From Escherichia phage rV5_ev158, in the sequence record LR694611: a stretch of DNA of 64,000 nt; one strand, 5' to 3'. Both the position numbers and the translations under genes were made by a program. Below are positions 11,642 to 58,480 of the stretch, piece by piece (the stretch's first letter is position 1; every line of letters begins with the position of its first letter). The notes under the pieces were generated by a model, which saw only the letters and a program-made list of their open reading frames with translations, ran no database searches and was not told where the DNA came from.

Positions 11642-11920
11642 ATGAGCTGCGAAAAATCTTTTTTCATCATCATTTACGGTAAGGATAACTGCCCACATTG
11701 TGTCAGAGCAAAAGAATTTGCAATCAGCAAAGGTCTGCCTTTTGTATATAAGACACTTGGCGAGGGCTACACAAAAGAAGAGCTTATTGAGAAGTGTAGT
11801 CCAATCGTCCCCCGAACGTTGCCGCAGATCTTCTTAGAAAGCGATCTTGACAGTATCCATATAGGCGGTGCCGACGATTTCATCTCTTTTGTTAAGAATG
11901 GTTTTGGAGAGAAAAAGTGA
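11642..11920 (+). CDS. glutaredoxin/thioredoxin-like redoxin (NrdC/NrdH-like)
   Basis: CPHC active site in YGKDNCPHCVRAKEF; sits between nrdB and nrdD. Confidence 0.75.
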   Translation: MSCEKSFFIIIYGKDNCPHCVRAKEFAISKGLPFVYKTLGEGYTKEELIEKCSPIVPRTLPQIFLESDLDSIHIGGADDFISFVKNGFGEKK

Positions 11921-14040
11921 AAGTTGTAAAACGGGACGGTAGAGAAGAGTTCTATAACGGAATTAAGGTGATCAAGGCGGCAGAGTCCGCCTTACTTGAG
12001 TCTGGACATACTGAAGAAGAAGCTTACCGGATCGCCTGCGCGGTTAATGAAGTTGTTGCTAACAATCTACCAACCGACCAGTGCACAATCTCTGTAAAAA
12101 ATATCCATATCCTTGTTGAAGATGCTCTTATGGATATGGGTTTAAAATGTGCAGCCAGAGAATACATCCAGTATAGACAGACAAGAGATAATAACAGAGA
12201 GGCAGGTGGAAAACTGCTTGCAGATATTAGTGGCTTCTTGGATCGAACTTGTGATGAATTTACAAAAGAAAACGCAAATAAGCCTACTAATCATGTACAC
12301 ACTCATCGCGACCTGCTTGCAGGTATTCTTAGCAAACACCTTGCATCAACACAGATCCTGCCAGACCGTGTCTCCGAAGAGCACAATAAAGGCTTCATCC
12401 ATGTGCATGATCTTGACTACTTGATCAGTCCGTTAACAAACTGTTGTTTGGTAAATTATCCAGATATGTTGGAAAACGGATTCAACATTGGTAACGCCCA
12501 TGTCAGTAAGCCGAAGTCAATAGGGGTTGCAACAACAATCCTTAGCCAAATTTCTAGTGCGGTAGCTAGTGCTCAATATGGTGGTCAGACTATGAGCCAT
12601 ATTGATCATTATCTGGCACAGTATGCTGAAGCAACCTATGAGAAGAACCTTAAATTTTGCCAGGAACATTGGTTGCCAAATGCTGAGAGTGTTGCAATGC
12701 AAATGACAGATAAAGACGTATTTGACAGCATGCAGACTTTGCTCTATCAAATCAATACGTTAACTTCTGTCAACGGGCAAACTCCATTCATCACATTGAG
12801 TTTAGGACTGGATACCTCGGTCTTTGGTAGAATGATTACCAAAAACTACCTGAAAGTCCACAAAATGGGTCTTGGTGAAGAACGTATTACACCTGTGTTC
12901 CCTAAAGTGCTGTTCTTCCTAGAAGAGGGTGTCAACATGAACCCTGGGGATCCTAACTATGATTTGAAACGATTAGCTCTGGAATGCTGTGCAGAACGTA
13001 TCTACCCTGACTTCGTATCTGTACCACTAAATAGAAAAGTGACAGGCTCGACAGATGGCAAAGTAACTAGCATGGGTTGCAGGAGTTTTCTTAGCAAATA
13101 CAATGACTTGGAAACAGGCGAGGAGAAATACCTTGGCAGATTTAACTTAGGCGTTGTTAGCCTTAACCTGCCAATGATTGCGGCAAAAGCCAAGACGGAA
13201 GGTGTTGATTTCTTTGCAGTTCTTGACGAATACTTGGATCTTGCATACGAGGCTCACCTTGTAAGGGTTAATCGTCTAAAAGGAACAAAGGCAGGGCAGA
13301 ACCCCATCATGTGGTGTGAAGGCGCTCTTGCTCGCCTGGATCCTGAAGAGAGTATTGATAAACTCTTCTATGACGGGTACGCTTCCATCAGTATTGGGTA
13401 TATCGGTGTGTATGAAACCTGTCAGATTTTGGGCAGAGAGGGTGACAAGGCTTTAGCTCTTGGAATCCTTCAGCACATGAGAGATGCTTGTGAGCGATAC
13501 AAGAAGGAAAGTAGACTAGCATTTAGCTTGTACGGCACTCCTTCTGAGAGTCTATGCTATAAAGCTGCAACCTGTCTGGATCGTGAATATCCGGAAGTGT
13601 TGAAGCACGAGCATGAATATCTCACCAACAGTTTCCATCAGCCAGTATGGATAAATAGCTCTCCTTTTGATAAGTGGGAGTATGAGGAAGGTTTTGCTAT
13701 GATCTCCTCTGGTGGCAACATCGGATACGTAGAAACACCTAACCTGAAAAACAACCTGGATGCTTTAGAGGCTCTTGTTGACTTCGGGTATAAACACATT
13801 ATGTATTTTGGTATTAACCAACCTGTGGATAAATGTCTCAAGTGTGGTTTCTCTGGTGAGTTCAGTGCAACAGCTAAAGGCTTTGTATGCCCAGAGTGTG
13901 GAAACCATGAAGAGGGAACGATCAGTGTAATTCGACGTGTGTCTGGATACCTTTCCAGTCCTAACTCCCGTCCTTACAATAAAGGTAAGCAAGCGGAAGT
14001 TATCGAGCGAGTTAAGCACTACGGAAGTTGTGGTTGCTGA
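11917..14040 (+). CDS. nrdD: anaerobic ribonucleoside-triphosphate reductase
   Basis: 707 aa; N-terminal ATP cone; C-terminal zinc ribbon CLKCGF...CPECG and glycyl-radical-like RRVSGYL. Confidence 0.85.
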   Translation: MKVVKRDGREEFYNGIKVIKAAESALLESGHTEEEAYRIACAVNEVVANNLPTDQCTISVKNIHILVEDALMDMGLKCAAREYIQYRQTRDNNREAGGKLLADISGFLDRTCDEFTKENANKPTNHVHTHRDLLAGILSKHLASTQILPDRVSEEHNKGFIHVHDLDYLISPLTNCCLVNYPDMLENGFNIGNAHVSKPKSIGVATTILSQISSAVASAQYGGQTMSHIDHYLAQYAEATYEKNLKFCQEHWLPNAESVAMQMTDKDVFDSMQTLLYQINTLTSVNGQTPFITLSLGLDTSVFGRMITKNYLKVHKMGLGEERITPVFPKVLFFLEEGVNMNPGDPNYDLKRLALECCAERIYPDFVSVPLNRKVTGSTDGKVTSMGCRSFLSKYNDLETGEEKYLGRFNLGVVSLNLPMIAAKAKTEGVDFFAVLDEYLDLAYEAHLVRVNRLKGTKAGQNPIMWCEGALARLDPEESIDKLFYDGYASISIGYIGVYETCQILGREGDKALALGILQHMRDACERYKKESRLAFSLYGTPSESLCYKAATCLDREYPEVLKHEHEYLTNSFHQPVWINSSPFDKWEYEEGFAMISSGGNIGYVETPNLKNNLDALEALVDFGYKHIMYFGINQPVDKCLKCGFSGEFSATAKGFVCPECGNHEEGTISVIRRVSGYLSSPNSRPYNKGKQAEVIERVKHYGSCGC

Positions 14041-14693: not shown

Positions 14694-14723
14694 TTGACAA
14701 AGCTTTGTTGAGTTGGTTATAAT
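14694..14723 (+). promoter_or_regulatory. sigma70-like promoter TTGACA-18-TATAAT
   Basis: TTGACA 14694-14699, TATAAT 14718-14723. Confidence 0.55.
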
Positions 14724-14752: not shown

Positions 14753-14866
14753 ATGGCTAAAAAAGCCTTGAAGAAGGCGTACAAGAAAGAGATTGCGCTT
14801 GAGCTTAAGAAAAAACACAAGCGTGAAAAGAAACATCATGAAGATGAAGAGGGGGTGCAACAGTGA
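14753..14866 (+). CDS. small basic protein, 37 aa
   Basis: GAGGAGGTG upstream of ATG; lysine-rich; below ORF-track cutoff. Confidence 0.3.
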   Translation: MAKKALKKAYKKEIALELKKKHKREKKHHEDEEGVQQ

Positions 14867-15213
14867 CACAAGAACGTATCGATTTGGCTAATAAGTTTGT
14901 AGATCTCATTTTGCCACGGTTAGTTACTCAACATGCAGATGCTATTTCTACTAATCTTGATGGCTTACGCCTAATGCTGAATCGCACAGATGACCCTCGT
15001 ATTCGGGCTGATTTAGAAGCCTCTGCCAACAAACTGGAAAAGTTCTTGCAAGTAGACACGCAAGAAGCCTTGCACAAGATTATGGTGGAAGGTTTCTCTA
15101 AAGAATTTACCATTAAAGAGCTTAAGGAGCTGATCCACCAAGAAGAGATGAATATCCGAGTTCAGGCTGTTGCAAGCAGCATGGAAGCGGCTATTGAAAA
15201 ACTGTTGCAGTAA
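14863..15213 (+). CDS. hypothetical protein
   Basis: 116 aa ORF, GTG start overlapping upstream stop. Confidence 0.45.
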   Translation: MTQERIDLANKFVDLILPRLVTQHADAISTNLDGLRLMLNRTDDPRIRADLEASANKLEKFLQVDTQEALHKIMVEGFSKEFTIKELKELIHQEEMNIRVQAVASSMEAAIEKLLQ

Positions 15214-15251
15214 AAGTACTTGGCACATCTCAATCTGAAAGGAGTCCCAAC

Positions 15252-16040
15252 ATGGGTCGAGCTAAAGAAACAAAACGCATGCGTGATGAAGCTAGAGAGG
15301 CTCGCAAATCTGATCGCCTGCGTAAGGCTGCTGAGAAATTTGCTGACGAAAGAGAGCACACCGCTCCAGCTCTCCGACCAATGAATAAGAAGCAGCAAAA
15401 GTATCTTGATTATCTAGGGTCACGTAAGATTATTATTGTAAACGGTGTGTTTGGATCCGGTAAGACATTTATGGCATCTGCATATGCAGGTGATCTTCTG
15501 CGTAAGAACGAGATTGATAAGATCATTGTTGCACGTCCTTACGTCCAGACAGGAAAGACTTCAGGATTTAAACCCGGAAATGCAATGCAGAAACTGTGGC
15601 CCTATCTTCGAAGCATGATGGACACGATTTGTCGTCGTGTTGGCAAAGGTGCTTTTGCCGCAATGCTGGGAGACGGTCAGAACAGTCGTATCGAGATTTG
15701 TGAAGTTGAAAGCATTCGTGGTCGTAGTTTCGATGAGCGATGCTTTGTCCTGATTGACGAGGCACAGCAAACTAACCCTGAAGAAATGTTGTCAATTATC
15801 ACAAGGATCTCTGATCAAGCCACCCTTGTAATTATGGGTGATAATAGCCAACGTGACATCCCTGGTAAATCTGGCCTTGCATGGGTGACGGATTTCTTTA
15901 CTCGTCATCCAGATCCTGAGGTTGGAATGATCAGCTTTGATAGTCCAGACGATGTCGTTCGTTCCGGGTTGGGTCGTCAAATCGCACTCAATCTTATTGA
16001 GGATCGTGCAAATCATATTTGGACCCCTGTTTCCGAGTAA
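15252..16040 (+). CDS. phoH: PhoH-like ATPase
   Basis: Walker A GVFGSGKT; ARPYVQTGKTSGFKPG resembles the recalled PhoH block RPAVEAGEKLGFLPG. Confidence 0.75.
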   Translation: MGRAKETKRMRDEAREARKSDRLRKAAEKFADEREHTAPALRPMNKKQQKYLDYLGSRKIIIVNGVFGSGKTFMASAYAGDLLRKNEIDKIIVARPYVQTGKTSGFKPGNAMQKLWPYLRSMMDTICRRVGKGAFAAMLGDGQNSRIEICEVESIRGRSFDERCFVLIDEAQQTNPEEMLSIITRISDQATLVIMGDNSQRDIPGKSGLAWVTDFFTRHPDPEVGMISFDSPDDVVRSGLGRQIALNLIEDRANHIWTPVSE

Positions 16041-16084
16041 TACAGAAGGGTGGTTATTCCACCCTTAAATATCTAAAACAGTTG

Positions 16085-16113
16085 TTGACAAATAGGCAAG
16101 CTTTAGATATTAT
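16085..16113 (+). promoter_or_regulatory. sigma70-like promoter TTGACA-17-TATTAT
   Basis: -35 at 16085-16090, -10 at 16108-16113. Confidence 0.5.
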
Positions 16114-16141
16114 TATCGGACAAAACAAAGAGAAGGACAGT

Positions 16142-16453
16142 ATGGCTACAATACAAGAGAAACTGAATAAAATATACTGCCTATTTGTCTATAACGGTGA
16201 GACAATTTTGGCAAATAAAGGATCCAAGAATGTGTGGACCAAGGACAGCGGTGGTAATATAATCAACTTAGCGTTGCTACGTGAGCGCCGACACAGATTC
16301 TTTATCGAGTCTCGAATTATTGAAAGCAGCACTTGCTACAGAACAGGCGATAAAGTAATTGTTGACAATGATACGTGGTATGTGGTAGATTGGCAATCAT
16401 TGAGTTGTGATGCTTCTGACAATCGTAAGTACTCCATAGTGATTGCTAAATAA
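16142..16453 (+). CDS. hypothetical protein
   Basis: ATG 16142 downstream of promoter with AAGGACAG SD-like sequence; listed ORF start 16019 overlaps phoH. Confidence 0.45.
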   Translation: MATIQEKLNKIYCLFVYNGETILANKGSKNVWTKDSGGNIINLALLRERRHRFFIESRIIESSTCYRTGDKVIVDNDTWYVVDWQSLSCDASDNRKYSIVIAK

Positions 16454-16513
16454 AGGTAAATGTGAATCAGGTTTAAATAAATAGCTTTCAACTTCCAATA
16501 TTAAGGATTTCTC

Positions 16514-17563
16514 ATGAATTTAACACCTCGCAGCACCATGGTACACGGCATGAAAGAGAAACAGAACGGTTTCGAACCTATGAGTAATAAAATGTTTGGT
16601 ATGCCGGGCGGTATCATGGAAACATACAGCTACCCAACACCTGTTGTTGACCACGTTCTTTATATCGACGATTTGGAAGACCTGCAGGATCATATGTCTC
16701 GCCTGCAGACGATCCGTATGGCTCAGCCTGAAGAAAGCATTCGAGTGATCATTAACAGCCCTGGTGGTTGCGTGCACATTGCGATGGCTTATCTGCAGGC
16801 ATTCCGCGAGTCTCAGGCAAGCGTTGTTGCACATGCGGAAGGGATGTGCTGCTCTGCGGGAACAATCTTATGGCTGGGTTGCAAAGAACGTACTGTGGCT
16901 CCGGACACAGAGTTTATGTTCCACTACTATCAAGGTGGCACTTATGGTAACGGTGTGAACATGAATACTCAGGTCAGCTACTGGAAAAAACGTTTTGAAC
17001 GCCTGATCGAAAAATACTACGGTGGGGTGCTGACAGAAGATGAGATCGCATCCATCACAGCTGGTGGCGAAGTGTGGTTGGACGGAGAAGAGCTGGCAGC
17101 ACGCACTGGAGCTATTATTCTGGATGAAGGCAACATACAACGCATCCAGAACGGACAAAAACCGAAAAAGCTTCTGGCAAAAGGTGATGAAGAAGGCGTG
17201 TTAGGTGAAGCAGGTCTTCCGGAGATTCACCAGTGCACATCTTTAGATGAGTTAGTTCATGCTGTTGAATCTGCAAAAGCGGGTGGTTCGAAAGGTGATG
17301 TTCACACTGTGTTCCTGAATCTGCAGATGGAAAGTGGCGAGACCGTCAGAATTGCCCTGAGTGAGATTACTTCAGAAGATCTGCAGCGATTCTCTGTCGT
17401 TGAACTTCAAGACATTCTGTCCCAATTGAAGACAACCCTGAACGGCGGTGAAGAGGTTAAGGTAAAAGATAAGACTCGCAAGCGTCTGGTGGACAATATT
17501 ATTAAAACAGCAAAAGAGCTCAATGAAAAAATCCTGGGTGCAGGAATTGTCGAAGAAGCTTAA
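16514..17563 (+). CDS. ClpP-family serine peptidase-like protein with C-terminal extension
   Basis: INSPGG and GMCCSAG (Ser) blocks, then His and Asp in ClpP order; about 150 aa extra C-terminal region. Confidence 0.6.
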   Translation: MNLTPRSTMVHGMKEKQNGFEPMSNKMFGMPGGIMETYSYPTPVVDHVLYIDDLEDLQDHMSRLQTIRMAQPEESIRVIINSPGGCVHIAMAYLQAFRESQASVVAHAEGMCCSAGTILWLGCKERTVAPDTEFMFHYYQGGTYGNGVNMNTQVSYWKKRFERLIEKYYGGVLTEDEIASITAGGEVWLDGEELAARTGAIILDEGNIQRIQNGQKPKKLLAKGDEEGVLGEAGLPEIHQCTSLDELVHAVESAKAGGSKGDVHTVFLNLQMESGETVRIALSEITSEDLQRFSVVELQDILSQLKTTLNGGEEVKVKDKTRKRLVDNIIKTAKELNEKILGAGIVEEA

Positions 17564-17574
17564 ACATTAATTCT

Positions 17575-17598
17575 AAAGCCCTCTTCGGAGGGCTTTTA
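17575..17598 (+). terminator. Rho-independent terminator
   Basis: AGCCCTCTTCGGAGGGCT hairpin followed by TTTT. Confidence 0.65.
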
Positions 17599-17614
17599 TG
17601 ATCTGGAGATTTGC

Positions 17615-18148
17615 ATGACTTGTGCTAGAAAACCTGATGAACAACGTAACGCCTACGATGAGTATGTGACACCGGAGTGGTGTGCAGAAGGGCTGTATGA
17701 CCTTATTCCGTTCCCAGAAGACTGGACCTACTTAGAGCCTTGCAGGAATAGTGCCTCAGGTGTGTTCTACTCACGTATGCCGTTAGGATCTGCATGGGGA
17801 GAAATCCAAGAAGGTGTTGACTATCTGAATACAGAATACAACCATGTTGACTGTATTATCACCAACCCACCATACAGCCTGGCTCGTGAGTTTGTAGACA
17901 AGGCGTTGAAAGATGCTGACGTAGTTATTATGCTTTTGCGTCTTAATTTTCTGGAAAGCAAAGCCAGATTTGAATGGTGGCTTGATAATGCACCTACTAC
18001 TGTGATCACAATATCTAAGCGTCCATCATTTCAATCAAATGGCAGAACTGACGGGCAAGCATATGCATATTTTGTGTGGGATAAGAAAAACCGTTTAGAC
18101 TTGCCGCCGTTTATGTGGTTGGCACCCCCAGAGGTAGACCTGAAATGA
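17615..18148 (+). CDS. small DNA N6-adenine methyltransferase-like protein
   Basis: 177 aa with IITNPPY catalytic motif; size and motif fit small phage Dam-like methyltransferases. Confidence 0.5.
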   Translation: MTCARKPDEQRNAYDEYVTPEWCAEGLYDLIPFPEDWTYLEPCRNSASGVFYSRMPLGSAWGEIQEGVDYLNTEYNHVDCIITNPPYSLAREFVDKALKDADVVIMLLRLNFLESKARFEWWLDNAPTTVITISKRPSFQSNGRTDGQAYAYFVWDKKNRLDLPPFMWLAPPEVDLK

Positions 18149-27969: not shown

Positions 27970-28275
27970 ATGGCTAAATCTAAAGTTGAACTGTTCACCT
28001 CTCTTCCTTCTGACACTGCAGAGCGTGATCGCCTTCGCAAAACAATCGAAGAACTGGTAGAACTCCAACTTCAGATTAAAGATCTGAAAGATGCCATTAA
28101 GGATATCATTCTCGTTGAGAAGCAGGATCACCTGTATTCTCCTAAATTCATCAAATCTCTGGTGGCTACCGAGTTCGATATTCGCTATGAGGCTGAAAAA
28201 CGTCGCGCTAAAATCGAAGAAGAGGTTGAGCACATGTCTGAGGCAGACATTCTGTTCAAACGCTCTGTAGAATAA
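27970..28275 (+). CDS. hypothetical coiled-coil protein
   Basis: 101 aa, charged heptad-like; followed by terminator. Confidence 0.5.
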   Translation: MAKSKVELFTSLPSDTAERDRLRKTIEELVELQLQIKDLKDAIKDIILVEKQDHLYSPKFIKSLVATEFDIRYEAEKRRAKIEEEVEHMSEADILFKRSVE

Positions 28276-28283
28276 TGACAAAG

Positions 28284-28307
28284 AGGGGGGCTTGGGCCCC
28301 TCTTTTT
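28284..28307 (+). terminator. Rho-independent terminator
   Basis: GAGGGGGGCTTGGGCCCCTC hairpin plus TTTTT. Confidence 0.65.
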
Positions 28308-28330
28308 ACTATCTATGAAGGAGATTTGAG

Positions 28331-28657
28331 ATGGGTATACCGATTACTGTAAAAGAGCTAAATGAACGTGATGCAGGTGGTCTATGGCCTGCACGAAAAA
28401 TCCGCTGCGTCTATATGAAAGAGAATCTTGAACATCTTGATCAACAGATAAAGGTCGGCGATATTTTCGAGGTCTTCTATTCCAATCGGCGCAACTGGGA
28501 AACCATTCAGCCTTCTGGTTTTGTTCTTGCCAAACTTGACACTGGAGAAGTGATTATCCCTGGGTTGGATATTGTCTTCGAAATTATCCAAGAGTGGGAT
28601 CCGGATAAGATTAGATACGAAGAATTATTCGGTAAAGGTATTATCAAACCTGTGTGA
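28331..28657 (+). CDS. hypothetical protein
   Basis: 108 aa. Confidence 0.45.
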   Translation: MGIPITVKELNERDAGGLWPARKIRCVYMKENLEHLDQQIKVGDIFEVFYSNRRNWETIQPSGFVLAKLDTGEVIIPGLDIVFEIIQEWDPDKIRYEELFGKGIIKPV

Positions 28658-28965
28658 GGTGGATTATGTCTACAAAGGCGGCTAAATACTCCTATATGCC
28701 ATCAACCTCTGCAGAGGTAGACTTTAGTTTCGATGTGTTTCCACTGTTTGAGGTGATTCTGGCATACCCAACAATACTATCTACTCCTGAATCACTTGTA
28801 CCTGTTAAGTTGCAGAACGCTATGCATTCTATGCACTACAACAACAAATGTAGGCACAGATGGTGTCAGGACGAGGAAAAAGATTTGGATAGTTTGAGGG
28901 ATTTTGACAGTCACCTTTTGACACCTTTCAGCTACTCCAACCTTGATAAGCCCTCATGGGTATAG
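28654..28965 (+). CDS. hypothetical protein
   Basis: 103 aa. Confidence 0.4.
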   Translation: MRWIMSTKAAKYSYMPSTSAEVDFSFDVFPLFEVILAYPTILSTPESLVPVKLQNAMHSMHYNNKCRHRWCQDEEKDLDSLRDFDSHLLTPFSYSNLDKPSWV

Positions 28966-28989
28966 CAAAATATCAAATTTAAGACACCT

Positions 28990-29016
28990 AGGACGCTCTG
29001 TGGCGTCCTTTTCTTT
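28990..29016 (+). terminator. Rho-independent terminator
   Basis: AGGACGCTCTGTGGCGTCCT hairpin plus TTTCTTT. Confidence 0.65.
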
Positions 29017-29177
29017 ATCTGGTGCACGATTGCATACCTTGGACAGATAATCTCGTTACAGAGCGTTTAAGAGCTTTCTACAAACAAGTCTCTCTTTCGA
29101 GCGTAGCGAGAACGCACGTCCGTTTTGACCCAAATCACCATACGCTCGGATTTTAACCAAACCCTCGCGGCGTTGCT

Positions 29178-29206
29178 GTTGACACATTACCGCTCCCGTG
29201 ATAGTA
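29178..29206 (+). promoter_or_regulatory. sigma70-like promoter TTGACA-17-TAGTAT
   Basis: -35 at 29178-29183, -10 at 29201-29206. Confidence 0.5.
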
Positions 29207-29239
29207 TCCACACACAGTTTGGAGAATATGGAATACACA

Positions 29240-29329
29240 ATGAGAACATTGTCTGAAGTTTTAGTGGTGATCCTGATGATCATTACTTCCATAGCGGCTG
29301 TTGCCGGAATACTCACGGGTGGAACATGA
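29240..29329 (+). CDS. small hydrophobic peptide, 29 aa
   Basis: Downstream of promoter; single TM-like VLVVILMIITSIAAVAGIL; stop overlaps next start (ATGA). Confidence 0.3.
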   Translation: MRTLSEVLVVILMIITSIAAVAGILTGGT

Positions 29330-29538
29330 TCAACACACATGCATCTGAAGAGACATCCGAAGGAGTGACCATATGTCCCTTGGATGAGCCAGTTAAAGAG
29401 GAAAACTTAGATTCTGAGGACTCTTCATCTTCGTCCCAGACAGATCCTGAGGCTGATGACCTGACGTGGGAGGACATCGTAGATATCTGGTTCTCTATTA
29501 TGCCTGAGCACGAAGAGTTCAGAGGTGGTAGACTATGA
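29326..29538 (+). CDS. small highly acidic, Ser-rich protein
   Basis: 70 aa; DSEDSSSSSQTDPEADD. Confidence 0.4.
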   Translation: MINTHASEETSEGVTICPLDEPVKEENLDSEDSSSSSQTDPEADDLTWEDIVDIWFSIMPEHEEFRGGRL

Positions 29539-29659
29539 AGCACCGAGCCCACACAGGTTCCTCATGCTAAAGCATGGCCTGAAGAGGCAAACGTGTATAA
29601 TTCTTGTGCATTGGAACGTATAAAACCCTGTTCACACTCTCATTCCCAGAGGAGATTTT

Positions 29660-29875
29660 ATGAAGATAGAGATATTTGGTGGAGCTGACAACACTCGTGG
29701 CCTGATTTACCTTGAATTCGATGAATCATACCTGCCAGAGGTGTTAAATATAGACTCTGTTGCTGAGGCTTTGGGAGTAAACCCTAAAGAACTCCACTCT
29801 TGTGCTGAGATCGATGGTTGGGAAGAGACCATGAACATTGATTTCAGTGAAGTAGAGGATGAACCGCTAGACTGA
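29660..29875 (+). CDS. small acidic protein (MKIE start)
   Basis: 71 aa; last plus-strand gene before the ORF-free zone. Confidence 0.45.
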   Translation: MKIEIFGGADNTRGLIYLEFDESYLPEVLNIDSVAEALGVNPKELHSCAEIDGWEETMNIDFSEVEDEPLD

Positions 29876-30004
29876 CACACAATCAGCTGCCCGGCTAAAG
29901 TGCTGGAAGCGCACCTATAACACATCTTTCAACTAAATTTCCTACCACCACAATCACTTACCTACCACACATGACTGTTTGCTTGTTTAGTGAGCAGTCA
30001 TGCC

Positions 30005-52822: not shown

Positions 52823-55559
52823 CTGTGATCTGGAACGGGACGCCCATCATTTTAGAAGCTTGCCAGAAGCAATGCACCACCATTTCACCCACAGGGCTCC
52901 AGATAAGTTCAAGCTTTCCGTCATCGTTCAGGATAGGATCGTACACCGTGTTTCCGTCTCTGTCAACCACTTCGTTTCCGTCCTCATCCTTGCGTGCCTT
53001 TTTGTACTTATGACCGTCGAACACATGAAGTTTGGCCTCCTGCTCTGCCTTAAATGCTTCCAGTTCTTCGATTGTGTCGAAGGTGTACACAGTCTTATAC
53101 TTCGGTGTGTCAGGGACTTGAAGCTGATATTCGTCATGGTAATAGATAATACGACGAACACCTTCATCGTACCACCCACGCTTCACCATTTGATGGTGCA
53201 TGAGTATCCCAACTAAGTCACACAACGATGCGCCGCCATTTTGTTGGTATGCATTAAGTAAAGAGTGTTTAGATCGGGTCCAGATAGCATGACCATCAAA
53301 AGAGTAGATAAACTTCTTACCCGTTGCTTCCCAGAATTTCTCCAGATCTTCTTTACGCCCCTTAAGACCAGGGTTGGCATCCCAGAGTGCATCGATTACC
53401 CTTTGTCCCAACTCTGGAGAGATGTCCAGCATATCTGCAACTTTATCTTTTTGTGCCCCATACATAACCCCATACGTGATAGGTTTACCGTCGTTACGAG
53501 ACACCTCTCTACCTGCTACTTTTGTATATGCCTCAGCATTGTTTTGGTGTGCGTCCCCGTTACTTACAACATCGTAATACAGGCCGTTGTCGAACTCAAA
53601 GGCACCCCAAGCCCCGATAAGCTGCTCTAAGTTGGACCCGTCAATACCGATCTCAAAGTATCCTGGAGGAACACCCCACAGACTACGCATCTCTTTACCC
53701 ATAACCACTTTAGGAGATGGTTTAGGCATGTTTGCACAAATACTGTGTTTCTGTCGGGAAGTGTTTGTTAATCCAGAACTTTTAGCAGGAAGCTTATGGT
53801 CAATCTTCAAACGTGGGTGATTAAGAAGACCAGTATCAACCTTATCCTCCTTGATTGGATCAAGGACCGATCTGCGGTTTCGCAATGATAACCACAAGAC
53901 GATATCTTTAGCCATCTCTCCGTTCAATTTTTCAAGATTCGGGCATAGGTGTCCAAACGTATCTTTCAGTTGCGGAGAAGTAATAAGTGCCCTAGCTTTT
54001 CTACGTATTTTCCCGAATACTTCCTTTTTAATCCTTTCGGAGTTAGGAAAGCTTCGGAACTTGTGCACGGTTGTCTGGAACTTAGCATCAGTTTTGTTCC
54101 AGAAGTTGATAATTAGGTCACAATACTCTGACTCTAAAAGCTCGTCCATATATGCATACACTCGTGCATCAACATCTGCATCAGGTAGAGCTTTCTTCTT
54201 GCTGTCTTTAGTTACATCCTTAGTTCTCCACATTGTCGGAAGCCAACCAGCACTGATCAGGTATCGCTTAATATCGTCCTGATTACTGATTTTCATAGGT
54301 ATCTTGCAGTCAGGCATTCGCTTCTGCTGTAGATCACTTATTGCCTGATCCATTAGCTCTTTAGGTAAAGGTTGTGGTGTGGAGGTGCCCTTGATATAGC
54401 CCCTCAAGAAATCCGCCATCTTATCAGGGTCTTTACAGCCCATCTCTTCACACCATTTTATCCCCATCTTACTGACATCTCCTGTGGAGGTAAATGCTCG
54501 CTTAGGAGGAGCTTTGAATTCTAAAGCACTCATGTCCACAGGGTAGCCAAGCTTGTCTTTTAACCATTTCCAACCATTATTGGAGATTGTCCCATCCTGG
54601 TTAAACGGCTTTTCAGGGAACTTAGGCCGCTGAGACATTGATAACTCTTTTAAAGGAAGTTGTGGTTCAACACGATCAGCGATCTCTTTCATCCACGCAT
54701 CGCAGCGGTCACGTAAAGCAATAGCCCCATCTATGTCGAAATACACACCCTGTCGAGCCTGCAGCTCCATCAGGAAATGCTGCAGCATGCCTCGGCGTAA
54801 TGCATTCTTCCAGGTAATCTTCTTGAATCCTTTAGGCTTCTCTTTGGCAGGGTCATACATAAAGTTCTGCATGTCAGATTTGCCGTAGAATACACCTTTT
54901 GATTCCGCTACCAACTCTTTCCAGAGCAACTCCTGGATGATAACGTCCTCGAACACACGATCCACATATTTCCACAGCGGAAGATCGCGCCAGTCATCAA
55001 TTTGAACTTTCTGGTTACCAAGGGCGTAGCCCCATGCCATAAGGCCGTGAGGACCAACAGGTTGCATTTTCTTAGTAACCGGGTTGAATACAGCGTCCGG
55101 ACAACCTTTTGGTAAAGGGCGATCAGGCCACAAGATTCGGCTCATAGCCAACGTATCAAACAGGTTAACCTGGTGGTCGTTGATAGTCCCCATGCATTTA
55201 GGATCACGGAACATATCAAAATGAATACCGGATAATCTTTCCATTAGCATAAAGTCATAACTGTAGCAGTTATGGCAGTTCAAAGCTGTTGGTGACCAGT
55301 CAGAATTGCCTGTAAGCCAACCTTCCAACTCCGAAAAATCTGCTATGCGAACTTCAAAATCTTTATAAAGAGTTTTCTTTGCCAGAATGAAGTTCTTAGC
55401 CTTTTCTATATCCTCCTCGGAGTAGTGTGTGCGGTCATTTAGAGGAAGGAACAGCATAAAACGGTTCTTATTCAGCTCTTTAAACAGACCGCAGTGATAA
55501 TAAAGATCTGGGTCTTCCAGCAAACCGGATGACTCAAAATCGAAAGACCACATACTCAT
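52782..55559 (-). CDS. family A DNA polymerase with 3'-5' exonuclease domain
   Basis: 925 aa; N-terminal FDFESSG (exo I DxE); PolA-like motif B KPITYGVMYGAQ and motif C YYHDEYQ. Confidence 0.8.
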   Translation of the reverse strand: MSMWSFDFESSGLLEDPDLYYHCGLFKELNKNRFMLFLPLNDRTHYSEEDIEKAKNFILAKKTLYKDFEVRIADFSELEGWLTGNSDWSPTALNCHNCYSYDFMLMERLSGIHFDMFRDPKCMGTINDHQVNLFDTLAMSRILWPDRPLPKGCPDAVFNPVTKKMQPVGPHGLMAWGYALGNQKVQIDDWRDLPLWKYVDRVFEDVIIQELLWKELVAESKGVFYGKSDMQNFMYDPAKEKPKGFKKITWKNALRRGMLQHFLMELQARQGVYFDIDGAIALRDRCDAWMKEIADRVEPQLPLKELSMSQRPKFPEKPFNQDGTISNNGWKWLKDKLGYPVDMSALEFKAPPKRAFTSTGDVSKMGIKWCEEMGCKDPDKMADFLRGYIKGTSTPQPLPKELMDQAISDLQQKRMPDCKIPMKISNQDDIKRYLISAGWLPTMWRTKDVTKDSKKKALPDADVDARVYAYMDELLESEYCDLIINFWNKTDAKFQTTVHKFRSFPNSERIKKEVFGKIRRKARALITSPQLKDTFGHLCPNLEKLNGEMAKDIVLWLSLRNRRSVLDPIKEDKVDTGLLNHPRLKIDHKLPAKSSGLTNTSRQKHSICANMPKPSPKVVMGKEMRSLWGVPPGYFEIGIDGSNLEQLIGAWGAFEFDNGLYYDVVSNGDAHQNNAEAYTKVAGREVSRNDGKPITYGVMYGAQKDKVADMLDISPELGQRVIDALWDANPGLKGRKEDLEKFWEATGKKFIYSFDGHAIWTRSKHSLLNAYQQNGGASLCDLVGILMHHQMVKRGWYDEGVRRIIYYHDEYQLQVPDTPKYKTVYTFDTIEELEAFKAEQEAKLHVFDGHKYKKARKDEDGNEVVDRDGNTVYDPILNDDGKLELIWSPVGEMVVHCFWQASKMMGVPFQITGEYLCGRNWGDCH

Positions 55560-55617
55560 ATACAGTTCTCCTTAAAGGGGAGGCGGTTGTACTACCCCTC
55601 CCACTCTTTGTTAAACA

Positions 55618-57696
55618 TTAAAAAGGCGTTTCATCATCCTCAAAACCAGGGACCGGGTCAGAGGATGGATCATCGTACTGGAGGTCTTCCTGCGTGTCAA
55701 CAGGCTTAACAGTAGGAGTTACAACCTTATCAGCCACAACCTTGCCCATAGGTGTTTCTACAACTGCATGCTCCTGATCCTCAAACATAGCCTGAGGTCT
55801 CCAAACAACCTCCCCACCTTCTCCGTCTGTAAACATTTGCATTTCTTTGTCCCAGTACCAATTACTGGCATCATGGAACTTACCTGTGTGCGGGTCCATA
55901 ACCAAAGTGTCAGCAATACCTAGAGTTTTTGCTGGACGGTTTTTAAGACCTACCAGACGGACACGTCCACGAGAACGATCCACCATTTCTTCGGCCTCGA
56001 CACCTATGACTACCCAACTCAACTGTTCAAGCCCCGCCGATCCTCGCAAATTCTCTTTTCGCACAGGATACCAGAAAGGTAACGGGTTACCATCCTTGTC
56101 CTTAGGAGGCACAATCTCTGTACGTTTGAGGTGAGCGATCACCAAGATAAACACGTTAAACTGCTTACAAAACGCAGCCAGCTGAGTCATAGCCATGTCC
56201 AGTTCTTTTCGCTCATCCTTAACATTAAGCCCTGAAATTACCATGGACAGGTGATCCAGCACAATATAACGGCAATGGTACAGGCAAACCATTTGCTTAA
56301 GCTTGGTAATCAACTCGTCCACCGGAATAGATCCGAAATGTTTGAACACTTTGATTTTTCCAGCTTTTGCCCATGATTGGTGAATCTCTGCGTGTTCTTG
56401 ATCAGTTAAAAACTGGCTAGGATCTTCAACAAACTCTTTAACATCAAACCCTAACTGGTTTGCATACAAGGAGTTAATTGCTTCCTCTGGGTCCTCCTCA
56501 AGATGGATCATACATAGACGATCATCCTCTTCATAGTCATCAGCCTTCGGGCATGTCGGGTCCATTAGGTATCTTGCAATACAATGTTCCAGTTTTTTAG
56601 CTACAGTTGTTTTACCGCCCCCTGATGGCCCTGTAAGCATTACGAGTGTCCCTTTGTGCAAGCCTTTTAGCATTTTTTGCAGTTTTGGGAACTCTGCGCT
56701 GATATCTACCCCGTTGGAAGTCTTTTTCCGCAAAGACTCGATAGAGAAGTCTTCTAAATCCGACACAGCATCAGGCACATATTTAACAGGGTGCCGGAAC
56801 ATGTTGACAATATCTTCCAGCTTTTTAGCCTTCAGCATGTCACGGATATCTTTTACCCCGTCAGGGTCATTTACTTCACCAGGGTATTCTACGTGGTAAA
56901 CGTTATCAGCCATCAAAAATGCTGCGATATTGTGCGTGGCCTCAACACCTTTAATGACGTGTTTTTGCTTCTCTACCTCGTTAGCTGCATCGTTATCCAT
57001 TGCCAGCACAACTGTTCCATAGCTACGGATAAACTTCTCATTGTTTGCAAAAGTATCTACTGCGTTTGCACATCCACAGTTAATTCCAACAAAAGGCAGG
57101 CAGGGTTTTCCTGCCAGATCACCACCGTTGATAACTGCGTCGATCCCGTCCTGGACCTCTTTAGCCCACTGCTTCACCTTTGCCGGGGCTTTAGCGTTGG
57201 TGAGAATCCCTTTTACTTGTATCTGATATGCAGCCTGCCATGCTGCAATAACATCACCTTCTCCCTCACAAACGTTAATCTGCTTACGGTTGTTGGAAGA
57301 TGCACACAGCTTTTGACCAAACATCTGGGAGTTGGCCTTTACGATGCCAACAACGGAGAAGTGGCCCCTTTGTTCTTTAGGAATAGTCCAGTCACGCTTT
57401 TTGAAACCGGACAGATTTCCGTAGCGGTCGTAATATGGGAAATATGTTGCAGTGACTGTCACACCGTCTTCTTGTGACAATGCTGATCGCACACCAAAAT
57501 ATTGTGCAGCCATCAGACCGATATTTTGTTGTGGGACAGGGACAATTTTAGTATTTTCTAAAACAGTCTCTACAGTTTCAACTTCTTTTTCATCACGATA
57601 GTCTCGTTTCACACTTCCCCCACTTTTATACTTAGTTGCTTTCGGGTTTGGCTCACCGAAACGGTTGTATGCAGATGCCATAAATTTACTTCCCAT
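55618..57696 (-). CDS. primase-helicase (TOPRIM primase plus DnaB/gp4-like helicase)
   Basis: 692 aa; TOPRIM-like VVLAMDNDAAN; Walker A LTGPSGGGKTT; Walker B-like IVLDHLSMV. Confidence 0.75.
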   Translation of the reverse strand: MGSKFMASAYNRFGEPNPKATKYKSGGSVKRDYRDEKEVETVETVLENTKIVPVPQQNIGLMAAQYFGVRSALSQEDGVTVTATYFPYYDRYGNLSGFKKRDWTIPKEQRGHFSVVGIVKANSQMFGQKLCASSNNRKQINVCEGEGDVIAAWQAAYQIQVKGILTNAKAPAKVKQWAKEVQDGIDAVINGGDLAGKPCLPFVGINCGCANAVDTFANNEKFIRSYGTVVLAMDNDAANEVEKQKHVIKGVEATHNIAAFLMADNVYHVEYPGEVNDPDGVKDIRDMLKAKKLEDIVNMFRHPVKYVPDAVSDLEDFSIESLRKKTSNGVDISAEFPKLQKMLKGLHKGTLVMLTGPSGGGKTTVAKKLEHCIARYLMDPTCPKADDYEEDDRLCMIHLEEDPEEAINSLYANQLGFDVKEFVEDPSQFLTDQEHAEIHQSWAKAGKIKVFKHFGSIPVDELITKLKQMVCLYHCRYIVLDHLSMVISGLNVKDERKELDMAMTQLAAFCKQFNVFILVIAHLKRTEIVPPKDKDGNPLPFWYPVRKENLRGSAGLEQLSWVVIGVEAEEMVDRSRGRVRLVGLKNRPAKTLGIADTLVMDPHTGKFHDASNWYWDKEMQMFTDGEGGEVVWRPQAMFEDQEHAVVETPMGKVVADKVVTPTVKPVDTQEDLQYDDPSSDPVPGFEDDETPF

Positions 57697-58480
57697 TAAT
57701 TCTGCTCCTTACTACAGGCTCGTTTGCTAGGAATACGGCTTTTGCCCAGCCACGTGGTGTGAGGCTTCGGATCATCTTCGTTCTTGCACTCTTTCCACCC
57801 AGCTTGGCGTGTTGCATGGAATACCCGCTAACCGCGTCAACTATTTGCGGGACAGGTTTTGTGGCCGGGATTATAAATCCATTACCTATCCAGCCGCAAG
57901 TTATTTTTGGATAGGCATCACGTGGAGCTATAAATTCAGGAAACCAGGGGTTTACATCATCCTCCGGTAAATACCCGCCATAGTCAGAAGGGTGAAAACG
58001 GTAATCAGGTTTGCGCCACAGTGTGGACATAACACCCACAGGATTCTCTACATGCCACGGGCAATCGTAAATCTCTCCCAACTCTTCTGCAACCCGAGCA
58101 TCCTTTACAGCATTAATCTGGATCAGCGGGTCCTTAGCCAGCTTCTTCTTAAAGTGTGCAGCACCTGACACCGCTAAGTGGGTGCACGGAGGAAATGCAA
58201 GAACAAAGTCCGGAGCTGGGTACATGCAGAAAGTTTCCTGAGGGAACCATGGATCAATCCAATAATCTACATAGTGAATATTTGGATGATCGGTGATCAC
58301 CTCTGCATAACTGCCGTGGTCAGCACCTTCTGCGTTAAAGCACAGGCACAGATATCCAGCTTTTGCCCAGTCAATGACTGCACCGCCAGATCCGTCAAAT
58401 AGACTCCACACAACACCTTTGTGGTAGTGTTCTTTATAGATAAATTTCAATTTGCTGTCTCCTAATGCAAAAAGCCCCAC
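57686..58480 (-). CDS. C5-cytosine methyltransferase-like protein (short)
   Basis: LFDGSGG (motif I FxGxG), AFPPC (motif IV PC) and HVENPVG (motif VI ENV) in C5-MTase order; only 264 aa. Confidence 0.45.
   Translation of the reverse strand: MGLFALGDSKLKFIYKEHYHKGVVWSLFDGSGGAVIDWAKAGYLCLCFNAEGADHGSYAEVITDHPNIHYVDYWIDPWFPQETFCMYPAPDFVLAFPPCTHLAVSGAAHFKKKLAKDPLIQINAVKDARVAEELGEIYDCPWHVENPVGVMSTLWRKPDYRFHPSDYGGYLPEDDVNPWFPEFIAPRDAYPKITCGWIGNGFIIPATKPVPQIVDAVSGYSMQHAKLGGKSARTKMIRSLTPRGWAKAVFLANEPVVRSRINGK

Follow-up and report, generated by a model that had tools for sequence, protein, structure and literature searches.

The stretch analysed here, 64,000 nucleotides from Escherichia phage rV5_ev158 (LR694611) and called the window below, carries on its plus strand an open reading frame (ORF) at 16514-17563 whose product (349 amino acids, 38.5 kDa, pI 5.1) is the homologue of gp122 of phage rV5 and is referred to here as gp122. 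The gene has an AAGGA ribosome-binding site 6 nt 5' of its ATG, and its neighbours encode class I and class III ribonucleotide reductases, thymidylate synthase, a PhoH-like ATPase and a Dam-like DNA methyltransferase. An earlier note, made from the sequence alone, had placed the ORF at exactly these positions and had described it as a ClpP-family peptidase lying among early and DNA-metabolism genes, a location that the neighbours just named bear out. The 4 kb around the gene are 100% identical to Escherichia phage rV5_ev168 (LR694610.1), where each position equals the window position plus 74126 and the gene lies at 90640-91689, and they are 98-99% identical to about 100 further Vequintavirus genomes. 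The gene is no new discovery, having been catalogued since 2013 as a 349-amino-acid 'ClpP (ATP-dependent) protease subunit' of rV5 with a Pfam CLP_protease match (PMC3606486, Table S3), on which the main text of the same paper is silent. As set out below, gp122 is a real but unusual ClpP relative, a variant of the ClpP fold that has long been annotated and is uncharacterised, and the conclusion that it is not the prohead protease of the phage is well supported.

The membership of gp122 in the ClpP superfamily is far beyond chance. Pfam CLP_protease (PF00574) matches residues 59-168 with E=2.1e-12 and 47.7 bits against a cut-off of 20.2, and a sequence search of the PDB matches about 110 chains of ClpP with E<=1, the strongest having E=7e-8. 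An AlphaFold model built from a 76-sequence alignment reaches a predicted local distance difference test score (pLDDT) above 90 over residues ~40-220 and includes the handle helix (residues 147-169); when it was compared with the PDB by Foldseek, the top 50 matches were all ClpP, with a target TM score of 0.57-0.74 (~0.7 for the leading ones) over 155-188 alignment columns and 17-24% identity. Among the PHROG profiles, the best match is gp122's own, phrog_5410 (E=2e-155, residues 24-345 on profile positions 4-322 of 323), followed by phrog_1827 (E=2.6e-40), both labelled 'ATP-dependent protease'. Sequence profiles, structure prediction and structure comparison therefore uphold the family assignment of the earlier note. 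On the other hand, gp122 is no orthologue of the cellular enzyme: with the NCBIfam clpP equivalog TIGR00493 it reaches 33.2 bits against a cut-off of 308.6, and every other ClpP equivalog falls far under its own cut-off. With cellular ClpP (MEROPS S14; E. coli ClpP, PDB 1tyf/2fzs) gp122 shares the fold with its handle helix and the serine and histidine, which stand in the same order in xSAG and MxH motifs. It differs from it by Glu or Gln in place of the catalytic Asp across its family, by conserved charged residues in place of most of the hydrophobic pocket for the IGF/IGL loops, by an unconserved axial-loop region and by some 130 additional residues of linker and domain.

The phrog_5410 match runs over the full length, C-terminal domain included, and gp122 belongs to a long-form family of phage ClpP-like proteins found in the Vequintavirinae and their relatives. 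At least 80 long-form homologues (268-374 amino acids, E<=1e-84) stand sharply apart from the short forms (about 190-240 amino acids, E ~1e-40); the named long forms come from Escherichia, Salmonella and Erwinia phages, and the contigs that carry long forms reach ~150 kb. The short-form phage 'ATP-dependent protease' (phrog_1827; Pakpunavirus, T5-like phages, N4-like phages, Barbavirus and many uncultivated phages) is the closest relative of the protease domain, with 25-38% identity, and shares with gp122 a DNA-metabolism context outside head modules, the exchange of docking-pocket residues for Arg/Lys and Glu and, frequently, a PhoH gene upstream. It differs by retaining Asp in the triad and by having no C-terminal domain.

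For the mapping of catalytic residues, the protease domains of 76 homologues (41 long, 35 short) were aligned by domain-only L-INS-i with E. coli ClpP (EcClpP), whose motifs align unambiguously. Ser114 (codon 16853-16855) aligns with EcClpP Ser97 and His137 (16922-16924) with His122, and both are invariant in 76 of 76 sequences. The position of the catalytic EcClpP Asp171 is occupied by Glu186 (codon 17069-17071), so that the Ser-His-Asp triad is incomplete in gp122. In this column, Asp is found in all 35 short forms, Gln in 36 of the long forms and Glu in the remaining 5, namely gp122 and its closest relatives. The claim of the earlier note that Ser, His and Asp occur in ClpP order thus holds for the serine and the histidine and fails for the acid; the Asp meant there was probably Asp190, four residues after Glu186. 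Catalysis is possible with a Ser-His dyad or a Ser-His-Glu triad, and the fixation of serine and histidine in sequences where the acid residue has been lost points to a working Ser-His pair rather than to a dead enzyme.

The acid has changed outside the rV5 group as well. The homologue of Vibrio phage F102 (308 amino acids, L095:3935-4861) carries Ser at the Asp171 position ('GKSIWL'), and ICP1 has Asp there ('GKDFWM'); the acid residue of F102 was lost independently, in another long-tailed lineage. By this comparison of sequences, it has been abandoned more than once in the clade. Both proteins, GP211 of ICP1 (326 amino acids) and the F102 homologue, resemble gp122 in having a ClpP-like domain with a long C-terminal tail, and their loci run like that of rV5 through ribonucleotide reductase, PhoH, small ORFs and the ClpP-like gene, then continue with DNA ligase.

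A second departure from cellular ClpP concerns the surface on which ClpX and ClpA dock. In the ClpAP structure obtained by cryo-electron microscopy, the pocket for the IGL/IGF loop is formed by L48, F49, A52 and F82 of one protomer and by L23, Y60, Y62, I90, M92, F112, L114 and L189 of its neighbour (bioRxiv 10.1101/820209). L23, L48 and F49 fall in alignment gaps in gp122, and five further positions are changed to residues conserved in the family: Y60 to Arg77, F82 to Glu99, I90 to His107, M92 to Glu109 and F112 to Thr127. At the position of Y60, all 41 long forms have Arg and the short forms either Lys or Arg, Glu109 is invariant (76/76) and the position of L114 holds Ala or Ser. The alignment is ungapped near the NSPGG and Ser motifs, and the mapping is reliable there. 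As far as the alignment can be followed, the hydrophobic ClpX/ClpA pocket appears to be lost, most of its residues being deleted or charged, and canonical docking of ClpX or ClpA on gp122 is unlikely. With the pocket gone, the term 'ATP-dependent' in the database label is left without support, and the suggestion of the earlier note that the protein may act in host proteolysis or takeover is not specifically supported, since the canonical docking pocket is not conserved.

The ClpP-fold domain is flanked by regions of a different character. The N-terminal 44 residues, which correspond to the axial-loop region of ClpP, are predicted to be disordered and show no conservation; most other long forms begin ~20-30 residues later. 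Beyond the ClpP domain, gp122 continues for ~130-150 residues of linker and domain, which agrees with the roughly 150 extra C-terminal residues counted beforehand (~135-150 in the present delimitation). Such an extension, of ~100-165 residues, is borne only by the long forms. In the model, residues 244-342 are predicted to form a separately folded domain, joined by a linker of low confidence at residues ~221-240 (pLDDT <50 at 226-239). It is an orphan: a Pfam scan of 30 C-terminal domains gave no family, and in a structure search of BFVD the only significant match was a protein of 303 amino acids, itself probably of this family, so that no structural relative is convincing. In an exhaustive profile search of 1.84 billion representative proteins, 7 matches were obtained and all were read as this family, five being long-form members with the domain at the C-terminus and two being short sequences (144 and 53 amino acids), probably fragments. 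The domain is acidic in every family member sampled (pI 4.1-5.05), and a resemblance to Rho-N, considered as a sign of nucleic-acid binding, was not adopted for this reason. The tails of ICP1 and F102 are unlike the rV5 domain and unlike each other, no similarity being detected by hhalign between the C-domain profile and either of them. Across these phages the protease part is conserved and the C-terminal module varies, and the unrelated tails of ICP1 and F102 fit a fast-evolving targeting module.

The rest of the genome bears on whether gp122 could be a head-maturation protease. In HeinrichReichert, a 99% identical phage, the head module runs in the order terminase, portal, prohead protease, scaffold, decoration protein and major capsid protein, and the prohead protease (139 amino acids, L001:4840-5259) matches Pfam Peptidase_S78_2 (PF14550, XkdF type) with 65 bits against a cut-off of 24. 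An identical S78_2 protease is encoded outside the window, at 55951-56355 of LR694610.1, between portal and scaffold. The head module of LR694610.1 occupies 53505-57994, so that its protease lies 34 kb from the ClpP-like gene, which does not adjoin capsid genes. The profiles agree with this: CLP_protease exceeds its cut-off, a Pfam scan of the gp122 homologue gave no S78 match, the S78_2 match belonging to the separate head-module gene, and the best NCBIfam model, Clp_rel_HeadMat (NF045542), reaches 60.3 bits against a cut-off of 120. Weaker PHROG matches labelled 'head maturation protease' were obtained with phrog_1684 (E=8e-22, residues 70-256) and with phrog_94, 2976 and 133; these ClpP-related head maturation proteases are, like gp122, phage proteases of the ClpP fold, and the similarity lies between E=1e-14 and 1e-22. 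The context of the relatives is likewise not that of head genes. Among the 136 ORFs that flank 70 short-form relatives in viral contigs, those for polynucleotide kinase (20), RuvC-like resolvase (16) and exonucleases predominate, and portal, capsid, scaffold and terminase are all absent from the 25 most frequent flanking families; in annotated T5-like, Pakpunavirus, N4-like, ICP1 and other phages, the homologues lie among early or nucleotide-metabolism genes, outside head modules. Finally, no gp122 peptide appears in the virion mass spectrometry table of rV5, as far as the table was available (PMC3606486). The view already taken from the sequence, that gp122 may not be a prohead protease, is thus strengthened by the separate S78 protease, by sigma70 promoters upstream of the gene, by the virion table and by the DNA-metabolism context of the relatives.

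A labelling problem was met among the prohead proteases. The best PHROG for the rV5-like XkdF/S78 prohead protease is phrog_1530, which is labelled 'DNA methyltransferase', and a Pakpunavirus gene known by label and position only, also called 'DNA methyltransferase', lies between portal and major head protein (L096:8353-8823). The label looks like a propagated mislabel of the prohead protease.

The features around the gene are collected in Table 1. Sigma70-type promoters P118 and P121 and terminator t122 had been predicted around gp122 by the authors of the rV5 genome, who reported the T4-late-like motif of that phage only upstream of late genes 27-66 (PMC3606486, Table S4 for the promoters and terminator). 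P118 is the probable start of a unit with gp119, PhoH, gp121 and the ClpP-like gene, and from promoters and terminator together these four genes form one unit for the host RNA polymerase that ends directly after gp122. The early/metabolism unit (genes 82-163), to which gp122 belongs, is not wholly non-structural, since the virion mass spectrometry of rV5 has gp133, another product of this unit, among its predominant proteins (PMC3606486). A PADLOC search assigned gp122, gp121 and gp119 to no defence-system model; its matches for PhoH were all of a generic helicase type.

Table 1. Features of the transcription unit that contains the ClpP-like gene, with the regions of its product (window coordinates).
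Feature	Position	Strand	Evidence
Sigma70-type promoter, rV5 'P118', 12/12 match to TTGACA-N18-TATAAT	14694..14723	+	Consensus scan; equivalent position in rV5 Table S4
Small ORF, rV5 gp119 homologue, 116 amino acids, phrog_7650	14863..15213	+	ORF call, PHROG
PhoH-like P-loop ATPase, rV5 gp120 homologue, 262 amino acids	15252..16040	+	Pfam PhoH 160.9 bits; phrog_170
Second sigma70-type promoter, rV5 'P121', 11/12 match	16085..16113	+	Consensus scan; rV5 Table S4
Small ORF, rV5 gp121 homologue, 103 amino acids, phrog_5456	16142..16453	+	ORF call, PHROG
ClpP-like serine peptidase with C-terminal orphan domain, rV5 gp122 homologue, 349 amino acids	16514..17563	+	Pfam, PHROG, PDB, AlphaFold, Foldseek
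N-terminal region of gp122, residues 1-44	16514..16645	+	pLDDT below ~50, predicted disordered; poorly conserved in alignment
ClpP-fold domain of gp122, residues 45-220, with handle helix 147-169	16646..17173	+	AlphaFold, Foldseek, alignment
Acidic linker of gp122, residues 221-243	17174..17242	+	Low confidence in the model
Predicted family-specific alpha/beta domain of gp122, residues 244-342: helix, two strands, two long helices; acidic	17243..17539	+	AlphaFold model
Intrinsic terminator, rV5 't122', GCCCTC-TTCG-GAGGGC then TTTTAT	17575..17602	+	-14.9 kcal/mol, z=-2.7; rV5 Table S4
Dam-like N6-adenine DNA methyltransferase, gp123 homologue	17615..18148	+	PHROG, Pfam

The ClpP-like gene is repeatedly accompanied by PhoH. 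In 8 of 11 sampled lineages, whose proteases are ~25-45% identical, the gene immediately upstream, apart from 0-3 small ORFs, is a PhoH gene in the same orientation: Vequintavirus (rV5, one small ORF), Certrevirus CR3, ICP1, Barbavirus, Pseudomonas phage UAVern, vB_PsaM_M1 (Ounavirinae), Vibrio F102 and UNO-G1W1. In UAVern and vB_PsaM_M1, the stop codon of PhoH overlaps the start codon of the protease, and in Rheinheimera Barbavirus PhoH, Clp protease and Dam methylase follow one another as in rV5, with only ~25% identity between the proteases. Among the viral contigs, PhoH was found up to 2.8 kb upstream in 14 of 80 loci and always on the same strand, the long forms contributing 6 of 7 and the short forms 8 of 73. 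The pairing has its exceptions. A complete Pakpunavirus genome carries the ClpP-like gene and no PhoH anywhere, and PhoH as an obligate partner was rejected on this ground; no PhoH was found within 4-6 kb of the ClpP-like gene in T5-like phages, other T5-like genomes encoding one, nor within 4 kb of it in an N4-like phage. Phage records with PhoH number ~3056, against 943 with ClpP-like matches. The upstream pairing with PhoH is new in this analysis and is offered as a lead, not as a result. A DNA adenine methyltransferase gene follows the ClpP-like gene in rV5, Certrevirus CR3 and Barbavirus (the PhoH order was taken from loci L086, L089, L090, L091, L093 and L095).

Taken together, these data are best described by a non-structural ClpP-fold serine peptidase that acts in the infected cell and not in the prohead, and that works without canonical ClpX/ClpA, a general picture to which we give slightly better than even chances. 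In such a scheme, gp122 would be expressed along with nucleotide-metabolism genes under host-type (sigma70) promoters, and its site of action would be the cytoplasm of the infected cell. It may assemble into putative ClpP-like rings and cleave peptides or proteins by its Ser-His pair, with Glu186 assisting at most and with no canonical use of host ClpX or ClpA. The lineage-specific C-terminal domain, on its flexible linker, would recruit a particular substrate or partner, and the first candidates would be the products of the conserved genes transcribed with it, the PhoH-like ATPase foremost. Several points weigh against this scheme. The absence of gp122 from the virion table is weak evidence, for few proteins are listed there and maturation proteases often leave the capsid. 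The pocket argument uses an alignment of ~20% identity that is free of gaps and reliable only for Y60, Y62, F82, I90 and M92. With Gln in most long forms and Ser in F102, catalytic competence is not assured, though the invariant serine and histidine would favour it, and a targeting role of the C-terminal domain is pure inference. Literature searches returned no functional study, biochemical or genetic, of any member of the gp122 family; the mention of ClpP in the Felix O1 paper refers to the S49 head protease of that phage and not to this family.

Four other explanations were weighed. The PhoH-like ATPase encoded upstream might be the nucleotide-dependent partner or regulator of the protease in a module that replaces ClpX/ClpA, and the pair would then constitute a phage-specific, nucleotide-dependent machine for degradation or processing whose targets are selected by the lineage-specific C-terminal domains. 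The same-strand adjacency in most sampled lineages and in the viral contigs, the two stop/start overlaps, the single promoter-to-terminator unit of rV5 and the conservation of charged residues where the ClpX/ClpA pocket appears lost would all fit this arrangement. It is held unlikely nevertheless, given the Pakpunavirus genome without PhoH, the T5-like and N4-like phages without one nearby and the excess of PhoH over ClpP-like records, and the synteny may merely mirror a slowly rearranging replication module. PhoH-type proteins are helicase-like P-loop ATPases tied to RNA metabolism and are not known to be unfoldases. A second case, in which gp122 is a canonical ClpP subunit forming a barrel powered by host ClpX/ClpA or mixed with host ClpP, thereby redirecting host proteolysis, can appeal to the fold with its handle helix, to the CLP_protease score and to the invariant serine and histidine; it is improbable in view of the clpP equivalog score, the low identity to cellular ClpPs, the deleted or conserved charged pocket residues, the disordered and unconserved axial-loop region and the catalytic Asp that is not conserved.

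The changes at the acid position could also be read as the mark of a catalytically impaired regulator that binds or scaffolds, for instance by sequestering a host or phage factor or by poisoning host ClpP rings. Gln in 36 of 41 long forms and Ser in F102 speak for it, as would the analogy with Listeria monocytogenes ClpP1, which has a non-acidic residue, Asn, at the Asp position, like the Gln-bearing long forms, and is inactive alone. ClpP1 differs in being a cellular paralogue that becomes active when complexed with ClpP2 and retains ClpX as its motor, and the phage encodes no paralogous partner for gp122. A dead enzyme would not be expected to keep Ser114, His137 and the oxyanion/GG motifs invariant in 76 sequences, those without Asp included, and dyads or Glu triads can be active, which makes this explanation quite improbable. 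An auxiliary head-maturation protease, or a protease-scaffold fusion in which the C-terminal domain targets the ClpP-like domain into the prohead, would account for the secondary PHROG matches and for Clp_rel_HeadMat as the best NCBIfam model, and some protease-scaffold fusions are likewise built as a protease followed by a C-terminal extension. The model score is, however, half of the cut-off, the head module of the phage already contains an S78 protease as well as a scaffold gene of its own, the ClpP-like gene lies 34 kb away on a unit with host-type and not late promoters, the available part of the virion table lists no peptide of it, and the closest relatives never adjoin head genes among their most frequent flanking families. 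The C-terminal domain, moreover, is predicted to be compact, acidic and alpha/beta, not a long coiled coil. The fusion was rejected on the S78 protease, the separate scaffold gene, the distance, the sigma70 unit and the compact domain, and a head-maturation role of either kind is regarded as very improbable.

For the preferred picture of a peptidase acting in the infected cell, the wider relevance lies in the distribution of the family, which is spread widely among large virulent phages infecting enterobacteria, Vibrio (ICP1 included), Pseudomonas and marine bacteria; if the protein has a real function, for instance the early processing of a phage or host protein, that function would be of general relevance. 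The usual phage labels 'ATP-dependent Clp protease subunit' and 'head maturation protease' both appear wrong for the gp122 family, as the gene is not in the head module, another prohead protease is present in the genome and no docking surface for host Clp ATPases can be recognised. The pairing with phoH is a concrete, testable lead for a marine-virus marker gene of undescribed role, and if phoH and the clpP-like gene were a functional unit, it would give the first mechanistic context for phage PhoH, which is among the most widespread phage genes.

Some minor observations concern the public records and the rest of the window. Between 88989 and 91689 of LR694610.1 (window 14863-17563), the public product names are displaced by one gene: 'PhoH-like protein' is put on the 116-amino-acid ORF and 'ClpP ATP-dependent protease subunit' on the 103-amino-acid ORF, and the true PhoH and ClpP-like genes are named 'hypothetical protein'. 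About 19 records named 'Campylobacter phage' (host Campylobacter jejuni; e.g. MG065635, MG065644, MG065651 and MG065653), some of them fragments of 1.4-87 kb, match rV5-type coliphages at 98.8-100% identity; mislabelling or contamination is the probable cause. The class III (anaerobic) ribonucleotide reductase at 11917-14040 is a single unbroken ORF of 707 amino acids; in the 99% identical HeinrichReichert (MZ501073.1, 110392-112559), the same gene is annotated as a join of two pieces, and insertions of homing endonucleases interrupt several further genes of these genomes (terminase, DNA polymerase). The GC skew flips at ~28000-30000 of the window, from ~+0.2 to ~-0.08, which marks the switch from plus-strand to minus-strand transcription units and agrees with the orientation of the genes in the annotated relatives.

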